From contig CAZALK010000011.1 in the NCBI GenBank assembly GCA_964486045.1, positions 32,001 to 96,000 of the forward strand: a stretch of 64,000 nucleotides of DNA, given 5' to 3'. Under the pieces are notes generated by a model. The model worked only from the letters and a program-made list of their open reading frames with translations, searched no databases and was not told the origin of the DNA. Positions within the stretch are counted from its first letter, which is position 1; every line of letters begins with the position of its first letter. This DNA is from an uncultured archaeon. GTDB taxonomy: Archaea > Asgardarchaeota > Lokiarchaeia > Sigyniarchaeales > SOKP01. Below are positions 11,027 to 21,302 of this stretch, one piece after another. The translations under genes were made by a program, and so were the position numbers.

Positions 11027-11986
11027 CTAAACTGATTCTAAAAATTTATAAGCTATGAACAAGAAGGAGTCGCTTACATTTTCACCAGTTTTAGCTGAAG
11101 TGAGAATATAATTGAAACCATGTCGATCTGCTACCTCTTTTATGTCTTCTTCGCTTATGACTATTTCCTCTGTTAAATCTGACTTGTTTCCTATTAAAAC
11201 AATGGTTAACTCCGTCTCAATTTGTTTTTTGATTTCATTATGCCAAATCTCAAAACTTTCTAATGCGTTTGATCGCGTTCTATCTAATACGATAAATGCG
11301 GAATTAGCACCATTAAAAAATCTTTTTCGATACGGTGCCATTTGGATTATCTGTCCTCCTATATCCCAAATAACAAAATCCATCATAGTTTCTTCACTTA
11401 AACTCAATTTTTTCTGAGAAATTTCAACGCCTATAGTTGATTGATAACTTTCTACAAAAGAATTATCCACGAATCTATTAATCAACGAAGTCTTACCTGC
11501 TTTATAATCGCCTGTAATAATTAGCTTAATTGGAAACTCCCCTGTTGGGATTCTTCCATCTTTCGATTTGGCGAGAACCCTTAAAAGTGCGGGGATCTCG
11601 AGAGAAACATTTTCATTTCCCTCTAACAATAATTCTATTTTTCCAGCAATATGTTCTGAGAAGACCCTTAATTCCGTGTCAGATGTTGATAAATCTGAAA
11701 TCGTTAAGAGAATTGACTTTAAACCCATAGAACAGTATGCAAATTTCTTATCCCCGATTATTGTAATATTGAAAAAATTAGTTTCCCCACTAAATTCACC
11801 TTTAATTCTATCAATATAACTATCCACTGTCGCGGCTATTGCTCCTAGTACAGTTTCATCTTTCGTATCTCCTCTACTTTCAGAAGATATTATCAATCCC
11901 TCCCGATCACTAATAACTACTGAAATTATTCCTTCAACATTGGTCATATATTTTATCAAAAGAGTTGACAAGAGATCTCTTAAAAT
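11027..11986 (-). CDS. Roadblock/LC7 (MglB-like) domain fused to Rab-like small GTPase
   Basis: N-terminal VISDREGLIISS roadblock motif; G1 GDYKAGKT, G2 STIG, G3 WDIGGQ, G4 NKSD, G5 SAK. The start is probably ATT 11986 (or ACG 11989) behind an AGGTGA SD; the track uses TTG 11971. Confidence 0.9.
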   Translation of the reverse strand: MLRDLLSTLLIKYMTNVEGIISVVISDREGLIISSESRGDTKDETVLGAIAATVDSYIDRIKGEFSGETNFFNITIIGDKKFAYCSMGLKSILLTISDLSTSDTELRVFSEHIAGKIELLLEGNENVSLEIPALLRVLAKSKDGRIPTGEFPIKLIITGDYKAGKTSLINRFVDNSFVESYQSTIGVEISQKKLSLSEETMMDFVIWDIGGQIIQMAPYRKRFFNGANSAFIVLDRTRSNALESFEIWHNEIKKQIETELTIVLIGNKSDLTEEIVISEEDIKEVADRHGFNYILTSAKTGENVSDSFLFIAYKFLESV

Positions 11987-12220
11987 CGTGATTCACCTTC
12001 TCTATGATTTTTTTTATATTCTTTAACTAATTAATCTTTTAATAACTGATATATTTATGCATTAGCAGATAACTTACGATAGAGCATAAAATTATATAAT
12101 ATATATTGATAGTACTTTTAATTATTATAAAAAGATTTTTTTTGCTAAACACCAAAAATAATATAAGAATATTATTTTGTATTTTCATAAATTAATCTCA
12201 TTTAAAATTAAAATTGAAAT

Positions 12221-15200
12221 TTGTCAGAAAAACTTGAAAAAATAGAATACTTTAAAATGGACTTATTTAATAAAAAGTGGAAAATTAGAGCCAAAACATT
12301 ATTTATTTTATTGTTCGCAATAATCCTTCCACTAATTCTTAATTTATCAGTACAAAACTTTTCTAATGGAGAAAATAATAACTTAAGTTATGATGGCGAC
12401 AATTTACAAGACTTACAGGTCTCTTCGAATAATCCCACGAATGTAAATTACTTTAGCTTTTATAAAAATATTACTATTGATCATACTAATGTAGCAGGAT
12501 CAGGAAGTCATACAAACTTTCCCCTGCTTATCTCTCTTACTGATACAGATTTACATGATGATGTCCAACCAGATGGTGATGATATTGCTTTTGCTATAGA
12601 GGCAGATTGGTTAGATCATGAAATAGAACTATTTAATCCTAGCTACACTCCAACTAAAGCTCAATTGATTGTTTGGATCAGAATTCCTTCACTATCTACT
12701 TCTATTGATACTATAGTAACTATGTATTACGGAAATTCAACAATTAATTCACGCCAAAATCCTGATGGTGTATGGGATATAAACTACGAGGCAGTATACC
12801 ATTTACATGATGATTTTTTCGACTCATCTTCGTATAATAAAGACGGAACAAATGGAGGTTCCATAGATATAGCAGGAAAAATAGGTGATGGCCAAGATTT
12901 TGAACAAAATGATAATAGTGACAATATAGATATAGGAACTTGGAGCATCATAGGAACGGAGATTACGATCCAAGCTTGGACAAGGTTTGAGTCTTTTTCA
13001 GTAGGAGATGCTCGGATTTTATCAAAAAATTCGGGTATAAGTGATAACACTGAACACCATGTATGGATGCTTGGAACTAACACCGGTCCAAATAGGTTAA
13101 GAGGAAGAATTAAAACAGGAACAAGTGATTCTTCTGGGACTTCAACAGTAATTGCATCATCAGGTGAATTATCAACAGGTACATGGTATCTGACTACTTT
13201 AGTCTACGATGGTTCTAATATTAGATTTGTACTTAACGGAAATCCTGTAGGATCATTTGGTAAATCTGGATCATTACGTGTTAATAATTGGCCAATAACT
13301 ATTGGGAATAATCCTACCGGATTCAAGCCAATAGATGCAATCATAGATGAAGTTAGAATTTCATCAACAGTAAGATCTAACGATTGGTTGTTAACTGAAT
13401 ATAACAATCAAAATGACCCCAGCATATTTTACTCAATAGGAGTAGAATTGCAAGTATCTATTCAACCTTCAAACTCAGATTATTTTAATTATTATAAAAT
13501 AATAACCATTGATCATACACAGGTCTCTGGAACCGGAAGCCATATAAACTTTCCTCTGCTGATTTCTGTCCTTGATGGAGATCTACATGATGATGTCCAA
13601 AGTACAGGAAACGATATTGCTTTCTCGTCTAATGGTCAATGGCTAGATCACCAGATCGAGTTATTTAACCAAACATATAATAATACACACGCTCAGTTGT
13701 TTGCCTGGGTTCGTGTTCCTTTTTTATCAACAACAGCGGATACTAATGTGACTATGTATTATGGCAATTTTACAATGAACTCGCGTCAAAATCCTGATGG
13801 TGTTTGGCATTTAAATGATTATCCAACTGGTTCAAGCTTAGACATCAAAGATAGTTCTTTTCCCAATAGCGATGGATCTTCAAACTATATGACATCTACT
13901 GATCAAGTTCCTGGAATGATTGGTGGGGCATTAGACTTTGATGGGAATAATGATTATATTAATATTATAAATACCCCAGAATTGCAAATTACTGGAGAAA
14001 TTACCGTTCAATTATGGTTTAAAACAGATTTAGTAAAAAATGATTATTTATTTAATAAGATGGGAGGTAACGGATATCGTGGATGGGATTTAAGCTTCAA
14101 TGATGATGTGGGTATAACTCCTGATGGGTGGATAGAATTTCGTATTAATGATGATGGTTGGGATCCAGGAAGTAGTGTTCCAGATAGAAGAGTTAATGCT
14201 GGGCAATGGTATCAAGTAGTTGCGGTTTATAAACCAAATGATTACTTAAAGTTATTTTTAAATGGGTCTATGGTATCGGAAAATACAATTGGAATACCAC
14301 CTTCTATATTTGATCCATCATTACCTGTACGTATAGCTAAAAGAGCTGATGGGTCGGGTACAAATTACGATGGAGTTTTTGACGAAGTTCGTATTTCCAA
14401 TATATCACGGTCAGACGGGTGGATTAATACTGAATATAATAACCAGTTCGATCCTAATTTGTTTTACTCCATAGGGTTTGAAAAAGATGCGAAGGAAACA
14501 GTATATCTTGAAGCCCAAATCAATGCAATTGACTTATATAGCAATTTAATACCCGATGCAAATGTTTCCTTAATAAAAAATGAGCAATTGATAGCTAGTG
14601 ATATTACTAATTCTAATGGGAGTGTGTCATTTTCAACTATAATTAAAGGGGAGTACAATTTTACTGTCTCAATTACTTCTAATATTGAAAATATAACCGA
14701 AATTGTTAATGCAACCTCCCAATCAATCCTAATCGATAAAGGTTTCCAAACAATTAATTTAATCTGTAATGTTAGTGTGAATTTCCTTGAAGTTTTCGAT
14801 GTTGATGGATTGCCTGTCGAATCTGGATGGATAATCGTTGAAAACAGCTCAAATTTGCTTCAAAACTGCACTCTTGATAGTTCTGGAAAAACTACCTTTT
14901 GGTGGGTGAACACTACACCATATGAGTATAATTATACTGTATATTATCAAAACCAAGATTACAATCCTGATACGCAGGAATTGTTTTCAGGAAACATAAG
15001 TTCTCCCGATACGATAATTCAAGTTCAAACAGAATTAACTACTGTTGAGTTTACTATTTCGATTATTGGAGTTGGTGATCCAGTTGGAGGTGCTAAGCTT
15101 AAATTAAAAGTTAATAATACCTTAGGGAGTAGTATAGTAAACTTGACAACGGACATAAGTGGAAAAGCAACACTACGGTGGTTGAATTCTTCCGGTATTA

Positions 15201-20210: not shown

Positions 20211-20318
20211 CTTTTTTTAACCTCCTTTACACAATTTTGGTTTTTATTATTTAATTTTAGATTTTGCAACTAATATTAGAAAGAAGACAATTTGATAAAA
20301 ATATTTGTCTTAAAAGGA

Positions 20319-21302
20319 TTAAAGAGATTCTATTACTCTATAAGCAATATACAAAAAAGCATCATTAACATTTTCACCCGACTTGGCTGATGTAAGAATA
20401 TAGTGGAAATCAAACTTTTTAGCTATATCTCTTATTTCATCTTTACTAATTACTAGTTTATCTGATAAATCAGATTTATTTCCAACTATAACAACAGGAA
20501 TGTTTTTTGGGATTGAAGATTTTATATCATTGTACCATTTTTCAACACTTTTAAGATGATCTGGGCGAGTTCTATCAATTATTATAAATGCCGCATTAGC
20601 ACCATTGTAAAATCTAGCTCTATAAGGAGCCATTTGAAAACTTTGCCCCCCGATGTCCCAAATAATGAAGTTCATCTTATTATCCTCAGTCAAATTAATT
20701 GTCTTCTTCGATATCTGAACACCAATTGTTGAAATATAATCCCTTTTAAACGAATTTTCCACGAATCTTCTAATAAGAGATGTTTTACCTACTTGGTAAT
20801 CACCTGTCAAAATTATTTTATTTGAATATTCACCGGCTAATTTTGGAAGAGCTCCAGCTCTGGTTTTTGCGAGAGCTTTAATAATTTCAGGGATTTCAGT
20901 AGATACGTCCTCATTCCCATCTAGAATTAACTCGATCTTTCCAGCAATATGTTCCGAATATACTTTTAATTCAATATCACTTGTAGATTGATCTGTAACC
21001 GTAGTCAAGATCGATTGTGGACCTTGTGAACAATAGGCAAACTTTCTTTCCCCTGTTGAGGTCATATTAAAAAAATTACCTTGAGACCCAAATTCATCTT
21101 TAATTCGGTCTATGTAATTATCAAGAATAGCGGAAATTGCGCCTAGAACTGAATCTGATTCTTCCTGATTTCCTTCTTTGAATTCTGAAGCGATTATAAA
21201 ACCATCTCTATCGCAAATCGCGACACCTAATATGCCTTCTACTTCTTCGAAGTAATTTTTCAAAATCCCTCTTAAGTGTTTTGCACTTGGGAGTTTTTCC
21301 AT
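20319..21302 (-). CDS. Roadblock/LC7 domain fused to Rab-like small GTPase (paralog of 11027-11986)
   Basis: AICDRDGFIIAS; GDYQVGKT, STIG, WDIGGQ, NKSD, SAK. Colinear with the first copy. Confidence 0.9.
   Translation of the reverse strand: MEKLPSAKHLRGILKNYFEEVEGILGVAICDRDGFIIASEFKEGNQEESDSVLGAISAILDNYIDRIKDEFGSQGNFFNMTSTGERKFAYCSQGPQSILTTVTDQSTSDIELKVYSEHIAGKIELILDGNEDVSTEIPEIIKALAKTRAGALPKLAGEYSNKIILTGDYQVGKTSLIRRFVENSFKRDYISTIGVQISKKTINLTEDNKMNFIIWDIGGQSFQMAPYRARFYNGANAAFIIIDRTRPDHLKSVEKWYNDIKSSIPKNIPVVIVGNKSDLSDKLVISKDEIRDIAKKFDFHYILTSAKSGENVNDAFLYIAYRVIESL

Follow-up and report, generated by a model that had tools for sequence, protein, structure and literature searches.

Asgard archaeal genomes encode dozens of eukaryote-like small GTPases together with longin and roadblock proteins, and the partners in these sets remain largely unmatched. 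Tran et al. described Asgard proteins of RB-GTPase and longin-GTPase-RB architecture and noted that genome layout rarely pairs a GTPase with a regulator (PMC10933270). A locus in a 64,000-nucleotide stretch of DNA from an uncultured Lokiarchaeial archaeon (assembly GCA_964486045.1, contig CAZALK010000011.1; G000:C11:32001-96000 in our numbering, in which G000 is the window's own genome; hereafter the window, to which all unlabelled positions refer) raises the question of whether a giant surface protein can be wired through its cytoplasmic tail to the small GTPases encoded on either side of it. The assembly comprises 5.18 Mb at ~30% GC, the window's proteins carry the name labels Promethearchaeota and Lokiarchaeia, and DNA of the locus is present in marine-sediment metagenome DNA runs only, with no RNA run listed. 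An original prediction, made from the letters of the window, had read the locus as a single-chain adhesion or lectin receptor with a longin/DENN-like tail, bracketed by two Roadblock-Rab GTPase fusions. Our analysis supports this interpretation in part: the locus is a membrane-tethered longin platform, and we consider it reasonably likely that the platform serves the two locus-specific GTPases as a scaffold or as a regulator of the guanine nucleotide exchange factor (GEF) type.

The receptor gene is an open reading frame (ORF) on the forward strand (12221-19144) that encodes a single-pass protein of 2307 residues. It opens with a TTG codon that is probably 12 codons early, Met13 (12257) being the likelier start on the reading of the sequence because it immediately precedes the signal anchor. 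A hydropathy scan revealed this N-terminal anchor or signal peptide at residues 24-44 (12290-12352) and one further transmembrane helix at residues 1833-1858 (17717-17794). Between them lies an extracellular head (residues 46-760; 12356-14500) in which Pfam recognizes two stretches each of Laminin_G_3 (LamG, concanavalin-like; E 1.2e-34, 120.1 bits against a cut-off of 27.6) and DUF2341 (E 9.5e-15, 55.3 bits against 23.4); both gathering scores are exceeded, and the 2 x (DUF2341 + LamG) head is the only one of its kind in its own genome. The head is followed by a beta-rich stalk (residues 761-1830; 14501-17716) with a weak CarboxypepD_reg-like Pfam match, which is homologous to the stalks of two giant proteins encoded elsewhere in the genome, on contig C7. 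The stalk carries 39 N-x-S/T sequons compared with 19.3 ± 3.8 in shuffled versions, none of 2000 shuffles reaching 39 or more; the sequon counts of the head and tail were not above those of their shuffles. The last 449 residues are assigned to the cytoplasm because a strongly basic stretch directly follows the transmembrane helix. The size of the ORF, its doubled head, sequon-rich stalk, single membrane span and cytoplasmic part of about 450 residues thus all agree with what had been predicted.

The cytoplasmic part begins with a basic juxtamembrane region (17795-18049), which comparison with other giants resolves into the motif K-I-P-T-F-V-K-K-V-R-A-M-K-K and a second conserved segment (..KWEDIGLSVENILG..). 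Receptor residues 1860-2307, used as the query of an exhaustive HMMER search, yielded 402 cluster representatives, of which the nearest dozen are fused to giant proteins and the rest stand alone. The stand-alone members are ~365 residues long and match query positions 85-447 from their own residue 2, so the module begins at residue 1944 (nucleotide 18050), exactly where the start of the tail had been placed. AlphaFold2, run on residues 1940-2307 with a 54-sequence alignment of the module (A1), gave a model with a pLDDT of 95.8 and a pTM of 0.89. The model comprises, in order, a longin domain (residues 1944-2063; 18050-18409), a first winged helix (WH1, residues 2064-2149; 18410-18667), a linker with an R-x-P turn, its R208 and P210 nearly invariant, and a long helix (18668-18769), a second winged helix (WH2, residues 2184-2265; 18770-19015) and a C-terminal helical hairpin that runs to the stop codon (19016-19144). 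DSSP assigned E7-14, E18-25, H33-46, E50-56, E59-65, E72-79, H84-100 and H107-123, which is the beta-beta-alpha-beta-beta-beta-alpha-alpha topology of a longin domain and has no N-terminal helix of the kind that would mark a roadblock. Among the 54 sequences the first hairpin of the longin domain is conserved as W-D-x3-G (W1952, D1953 and G1957 of the receptor; W in 48, D in 42, G in 49) and is accompanied by K-Y-P, with the proline present in 53.

Structure comparison of this model placed the tail among longin proteins. The best Foldseek matches in the Protein Data Bank (PDB) were chains of a GATOR1-containing entry (9v0j_B, E 5e-5; 9v0j_A, 7.3e-5), which we take, judging by chain size only, to be NPRL2 and NPRL3; they were followed by SEAC, Mon1-Ccz1, Fuzzy-Inturned, BLOC-3, DENND1 and longin SNAREs. 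VIA-align matched the longin domain to many longin structures with Z of 10-11.7 over 107-128 residues, including VAMP7 (Z 11.7; 110 residues, 3.0 Å), 8adl_S of SEAC (11.7), 8fw5_B of GATOR1 (11.2) and the solved Lokiarchaeal Roadblock-Longin protein 8yqg (11.1). For the winged helices it returned MecI, CzrA and Rv0081 at Z 8.7-9.6 (WH1 to MecI 8.7, WH2 to CzrA 8.7), and profile matches linked WH1 to the Mnd1 winged helix (E 0.018) and WH2 to PH1932 (E 6.8e-5) and HlyU (E 0.012). In the ESM Atlas the nearest entries after the family's own unnamed clusters were eukaryotic NPRL2 proteins (PF06218; 181-204 residues, template modelling (TM) scores 0.37-0.40). The tail thus has the layout of NPRL2 and NPRL3, a longin domain followed by small C-terminal helical and winged-helix domains, and the model supports the longin-plus-wing description and the analogy with these proteins at the level of fold and layout. 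Of the longin/DENN-like tail that had been proposed, the longin part stands and the DENN part falls, since the longin domain is followed by two winged helices and further helices where a DENN core would stand, and the DENND1 matches cover ~125-145 columns of the longin domain only.

A profile of the module matched 318 of 400 Asgard genomes, including all 134 in the window's family, and the window's own genome holds 9 module genes. Two giants on contig C7 (1723 and 1446 residues), homologous to the stalk and juxtamembrane region of the receptor, each have a separate module gene 0-1 bp downstream that encodes 368 or 369 residues (in one of the two pairs, giant C7:169548-173888 and module C7:173889-174998); on contig C23 two giants precede a single module, and on C17 a giant is divergent from its module. 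All of these giants have a signal anchor, a single C-terminal transmembrane helix and, directly after it, the basic motif [RK]-[IFY]-P-x(2,3)-[VI]-[RK]-K-[VIA]-R-x-[LMY]-[RK]-K. In this strict form the motif occurs in 6 of the 4579 ORFs of the genome, every one of them fused to a module or less than ~5 kb from one, and is absent from the remaining ~79 proteins of at least 1000 residues; as the pattern was derived from module-adjacent giants, this shows specificity and is no independent discovery. The strict pattern misses more distant giants, in which the motif was read by eye. A survey of five closed genomes that represent four other families placed 11-12 of their 12 full-length module genes less than ~1 kb from a gene for a single-pass protein of 610-3420 residues, and the gene boundaries of giant and module mostly abut or overlap. 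After the transmembrane helix these giants mostly carry R-I-P-[LFMET]-[IV]-I-K-[KQ]-I-[DN]-x-[TS]-x-K, one having Y-P-K-I-I-R-K-I-R; in Lokiarchaeia giants the motif is followed by a second conserved segment (..R-W-[DEQ]-x-L-[DG]-L-[DS]..I-L-G). The two-part motif is shared by module-adjacent giants of the window's own genome and of 4 distant closed Asgard genomes, in each case behind the last transmembrane helix.

The pairing of giant and module is therefore general across the phylum, and the window contains a naturally fused version of this pair, which otherwise consists of two genes, one for a giant surface protein and one for a soluble longin/winged-helix protein. We counted at least 20 fused ORFs of 1940-2677 residues that combine head, stalk and module, spread over at least 12 genomes and often arranged in tandem arrays of 2-4; this recurrence argues that the fusion is genuine rather than a product of misassembly. 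The module is acidic and its counterpart, the tail motif, basic, as would suit a docking of the one on the other in split systems. The literature searched, many subscription papers lying outside its coverage, yielded no account of the pairing; the receptor-longin-module architecture is real and well defined, and apparently undescribed. Two further observations concern the split cassettes of the window's own genome. A third conserved gene follows the module in two cassettes of another type, at G000:C23:16722-18665 and G000:C17:54462-56654, the products (647 and 730 residues) sharing similar C-termini and having no transmembrane segment. An ORF of 1822 residues at G000:C17:63006-68474 contains the motif twice (residues 796 and 1716) and several transmembrane segments, which suggests either a pair of giants joined in a single reading or a tandem fusion.

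The two GTPase genes flanking the receptor, both on the reverse strand, encode a Roadblock/LC7 domain followed by a Ras-like (Rab-like) G domain. In P0002, on the 5' side (11027-11971), both domains exceed their Pfam cut-offs (Ras E 6.5e-35, Robl_LC7 E 6.3e-6); in P0003, on the 3' side (20319-21302), Ras does so (E 4.2e-38) and Robl_LC7 reaches 19.0 bits against a cut-off of 23 (E 1.2e-3). The G motifs are intact across 41 sequences, with a G1 of the form GxxxxGKT (GDYKVGKTS), the switch I threonine, WDIGGQ, NKSD and SAK, so both are Roadblock-fused members of the Ras superfamily. They are not Rag/Gtr proteins: their domain order is reversed, and they score 120-131 bits against Ras and 27-28 bits against Gtr1_RagA. 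P0002 and P0003 share 57% identity, and P0002 is divergent from the receptor gene across an intergenic region of 249 bp (11972-12220), as had been noted in the prediction of paralogous GTPases, one sharing a divergent promoter region. The start of P0002 probably lies at Met9 (11947), its homologues being 306-307 residues long and covering 97% of the ORF. GTPases do stand on both sides of the receptor as proposed; on the 3' side the bracketing is not direct, for a gene encoding a 286-residue protein (P4) intervenes.

We examined this arrangement at 13 related receptor loci, each with at least one readable flank, and found an adjacent GTPase gene at all 13; the GTPase neighbourhood on which the original prediction leaned is thus conserved. 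The divergent 5' gene is a Roadblock-GTPase at 9 of the 10 loci with a readable 5' flank, and in most cases encodes 549-684 residues, with an additional N-terminal longin/roadblock domain and Arf-like G domain that are absent from P0002. Such two-G-domain proteins (longin/roadblock + Arf-like, then Roadblock + Ras) are found at L046:10265-12319 and at L048, L050, L054, L057, L058 and L059, and P0002 and a 311-residue gene product of G190 correspond to the second half only. At the 3' flank a Roadblock-Ras gene is visible in 8 of 11 cases, paired with P4 in 7 (the Roadblock-Ras product having 318-328 residues) and without P4 in L040, and arrays that lack a Roadblock-Ras gene have a related Arf-like GTPase in its place; orthologues of P0003 (325-328 residues) occur at this site in 6 further genomes. 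The genes further out are not shared between genera g1, g11 and g12 and are different again in G178, giving at least three outer contexts, so that receptor and GTPases move together as a unit. In a maximum-likelihood tree, whose rows were chosen by adjacency to a receptor, all 17 receptor-flanking GTPases fell into one clade (support 100/99, stem 1.39), outside which stood the remaining five Roadblock-Ras paralogues that the window's own genome encodes. The clade comprised a 5'-type subclade (95/98), to which P0002 belongs, and a group of 3' type with P0003. The genome has exactly two members of this clade, both at the receptor. Among the split systems, the C18 module has a GTPase gene 55 bp away, and in G117 and G002 a longin/roadblock-fused GTPase abuts the module. 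A 342-residue longin/roadblock-Arf-like GTPase is encoded on the opposite strand (C7:168046-169074) between the two split cassettes of C7 (G000:C7:161679-174998). The link to a GTPase is frequent overall, and it is constant in the fused LamG-type group to which the window belongs.

Several observations weigh against a longin platform for the two GTPases. The tail shows no relation to a longin, NPR2 or DENN family at the sequence level in Pfam or PDB profile searches, and its longin loops hold no conserved arginine, the residue after the conserved glycine being valine, threonine or alanine. No GTPase gene lies within ~8 kb of six cassettes from two closed genomes (4 in G138, 2 in G135), and the C23 and C17 modules of the window's own genome have none within 35 kb. 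The related loci come mostly from family f1, so that much of the synteny could be inherited, with only about three distinct outer contexts. The module is also not restricted to surface proteins, as SIR2-like + TPR proteins of ~1020-1046 residues (metagenomic P0053 and P0063) carry an N-terminal longin domain with two winged helices. A complex prediction for P0002 with the module, which gave no verdict (score 0.00), counts neither for nor against binding. The cassettes without a GTPase make the GTPase link lineage-variable and the giant-module link the general one.

Given this difference, we wondered whether the module might instead be an adaptor for the biogenesis, sorting or anchoring of the giants, keeping them at protrusions or connecting them with the cytoskeleton or secretion machinery, with the GTPases as co-inherited or co-regulated neighbours that it does not regulate. 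The phylum-wide pairing of giant and module with its tail motif, set beside the patchy GTPase adjacency, would be expected of such an adaptor, and longin domains also occur in adaptors that do not act on GTPases, longin SNAREs and the AP sigma and mu subunits being among the fold matches of the tail. The GTPases at the receptor nevertheless belong to a dedicated clade that is kept there in different outer contexts, split cassettes in the window's own genome and in G117 and G002 directly adjoin a longin/roadblock-fused GTPase, and the best fold matches of the tail are longin complexes that regulate GTPases. On balance we regard a pure adaptor as unlikely, while giving it some weight.

The top structural matches suggest a second alternative, namely that the tail is a true subunit of a GATOR1-type GTPase-activating protein (GAP), an NPRL2 orthologue that presents an arginine finger to a Rag-like GTPase. 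GATOR1 and SEAC chains lead the Foldseek matches, NPRL2 clusters are the first named ones in the Atlas, and size (~365 residues) and domain order are similar to those of NPRL2 and NPRL3 (~365-400 residues). Liu et al. described NPRL2-like longin asCOGs in Asgard archaea, including fusions to two-component signalling domains (10.1101/2020.10.19.343400). Membership of the NPRL2 family, as of the DENN family, fails at the sequence level, however. Neither NPR2 (PF06218) nor NPR3 (PF03666) was matched in Pfam at E≤0.1-1 by the tail, 7 paralogues or 45 longin domains, Pfam otherwise returned only noise for the tail and the 7 paralogues, and a PDB profile search with an alignment of the longin domain alone gave chance matches and no longin protein. 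Global TM-scores to the GATOR1 and NPRL2 matches are only 0.2-0.4. No arginine or lysine column of the longin domain reaches 70% in the 54 sequences, so a conserved arginine finger of the NPRL2, FLCN or SMCR8 kind is not supported, and the glycine-proline motif is reduced to G-[VTA]; positions equivalent to those of the finger and the motif were judged by secondary structure and not by superposition. The neighbouring GTPases, moreover, belong to the Ras/Rab-like kind and carry the roadblock at the N-terminus, opposite to the domain order of Rag. Orthology to NPRL2 is accordingly improbable, and the module would instead be a longin platform that works as a scaffold or in the manner of a GEF, or else the member of a pair that lacks catalysis.

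The winged helices invite a third interpretation, in which the tail is a membrane-tethered transcription regulator with a ToxR- or CadC-like logic, its soluble paralogues being transcription factors that the tail of the receptor retains. WH2 does resemble ArsR-like regulators, as its matches to PH1932, HlyU and CzrA attest. Across the 54 members, however, WH1 and WH2 are acidic to neutral (median pI 5.9 and 5.2), as opposed to the basic surface of ArsR/MarR-like regulators, and the whole module is acidic (median pI 5.2, net charge -11), which would argue against DNA binding. The winged helices are also always joined to a longin domain, and fold neighbours with the same layout use theirs for protein contacts. 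We rate this interpretation as very improbable, chiefly on account of the acidity of the winged helices. That the receptor and GTPases are adjacent by chance or hitch-hiking in a genome with ~95 small GTPase genes, where 8.5% of genes have one within 2 kb (8.5-16% at 2-5 kb; counted with jackhmmer, starting from the longin/roadblock-Arf portion of a 684-residue upstream protein) and where the compared loci come mostly from close relatives, is hardly credible, since two members of one exclusive clade flank the receptor, genera g1, g11 and g12 keep the arrangement amid differing outer neighbours, and independent split cassettes adjoin a GTPase as well.

How does a longin platform on a surface protein compare with known systems? 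NPRL2 and NPRL3 (Npr2 and Npr3 in yeast; GATOR1/SEACIT, the GAP for RagA/Gtr1) act at a membrane on small GTPases that bear roadblock domains. Against their likeness in fold and layout stand the differences in family membership, arginine finger, glycine-proline motif and TM-score given above, and the tail module, unlike them, is part of a giant surface protein or encoded beside one. No DEPDC5-like partner turned up here, no search having been aimed at DEPDC5-like genes. The module family probably falls under the 'NPRL2-like longin domain' asCOG label, which covers an expansion specific to Asgard archaea; the parts of Liu et al. available to us mention neither pairing nor fusion with giant single-pass surface proteins, and describe neither a tail motif nor a dedicated clade of GTPases (10.1101/2020.10.19.343400). 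In C9orf72, W33-D34 and G38 are essential (PMC12290439). The W-D-x3-G spacing of the tail longin equals that of C9orf72 W33-D34...G38, and entries of C9orf72-SMCR8 (CSW) and FLCN-FNIP (6lt0, 8dhb, 6ulg and 6nzd) are among the fold matches; the tail differs from both in having no DENN core after the longin domain, no conserved proline in the glycine-proline motif and no identified partner with an arginine finger.

Roadblock and longin dimers serve as platforms for Ras-superfamily GTPases, as in MglA/MglB and Ragulator-Rag. Here the flanking GTPases carry a roadblock of their own, and the fold matches of the tail include structures of MglC, LAMTOR and Asgard roadblock proteins. In these GTPases the roadblock precedes a Rab-like G domain, whereas that of Rag is C-terminal, and the candidate platform resides in a transmembrane surface protein and not in a lipid-anchored scaffold. 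The longin SNAREs (VAMP7, Sec22 and Ykt6) are likewise membrane-anchored with a cytosolic longin domain, VAMP7 being the joint best VIA-align match. In contrast to them, the receptor has no SNARE motif and has the opposite topology, with a huge ectodomain and a longin domain that comes after the transmembrane helix.

The gene that separates the receptor from P0003, P4, lies on the reverse strand (19290-20150; to 20210 if an in-frame TGA is read through) and has hundreds of homologues of fixed length with ~70% identity. It travels with the 3' GTPase: of 11 related loci with a readable 3' flank, 7 have the pair of P4 and Robl-Ras next to the 3' end of the array of receptors. Its model (pLDDT 62.9) aligned in VIA with a Z of 13.5 over ~200 residues to the beta-supersandwich of GH94, GH15 and GH65 enzymes and galactose mutarotase, and its ESM feature neighbours hint at this fold too, at scores of 0.83-0.85 (0.9 being the threshold above a mere lead). 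The assignment is tentative given the low-confidence model and these feature scores. P4 has no signal peptide, and it is encoded near a GH4 glycosidase and HisB. At all 7 loci compared, the TGA (20169-20171) stands in frame seven codons before the ATG, ~13 codons upstream of it are kept as protein despite nucleotide changes, and the region (19206-20226, reverse strand) has a Shine-Dalgarno-like GGAGG ahead and a conserved A-T-G-A...G-A element past the stop. To judge from this conservation, P4 probably extends upstream through the TGA, whose context supports a selenoprotein reading; the start codon of the extended form would be ATT or ATA. Beyond P0002 and P0003 lie ordinary genes, for an N6/N4 DNA methylase (8928-10004), an imidazoleglycerol-phosphate dehydratase (HisB; 21711-22283) and a family-4 glycosidase (22285-23748), and we therefore take the unit to end at these two GTPases.

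For the tethered longin platform, we propose the following mechanism. The receptor gene would encode a single-pass surface protein that is glycosylated and probably acts as an adhesin or lectin-like receptor. At its cytoplasmic end this protein fuses two parts that are separate in most Asgard archaea, the basic juxtamembrane motif and the acidic ~365-residue protein with a longin domain and two winged helices. Where giant and module are separate proteins, the module most likely docks on the giant's juxtamembrane motif; in the form encoded in the window it is covalently tethered. The tethered longin domain would then act as a membrane-anchored platform that contacts the two locus-specific Roadblock-Rab-like GTPases, and as the kind of regulation a scaffold or GEF-type role seems likelier than that of an arginine-finger GAP. 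The surface protein would thereby be coupled to a GTPase switch, and the coupling could run in either direction, outside-in for signalling or inside-out for the placing or clustering of the surface protein. A more specific version, which strikes us as possible rather than probable, is that ligand or contact sensing by the LamG head alters the engagement of the two GTPases by the tethered NPRL2-like module, that the system is a forerunner of the eukaryotic longin/roadblock platforms (GATOR-Ragulator-Rag and Mon1-Ccz1-Rab7), and that the giants are the 'complex surface densities' on Lokiarchaeial cells.

The locus permits a GTPase to be matched with a regulator, because fusion ties the longin module, and conserved adjacency ties an exclusive GTPase clade, to the same surface protein; the window adds the fused form together with both dedicated GTPases. 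Receptor, adaptor and GTPase form a defined three-part set that is open to expression and assay. Rodrigues-Oliveira et al. reported that NPRL2-like longins are enriched in Lokiarchaeia and that Lokiarchaeum ossiferum carries unexplained complex surface proteins, and giant surface proteins are candidates for the cell-cell contacts in models of eukaryogenesis (PMC9834061). The longin-GTPase logic of eukaryotic endomembranes may first have operated at the plasma membrane, under giant surface proteins such as these.

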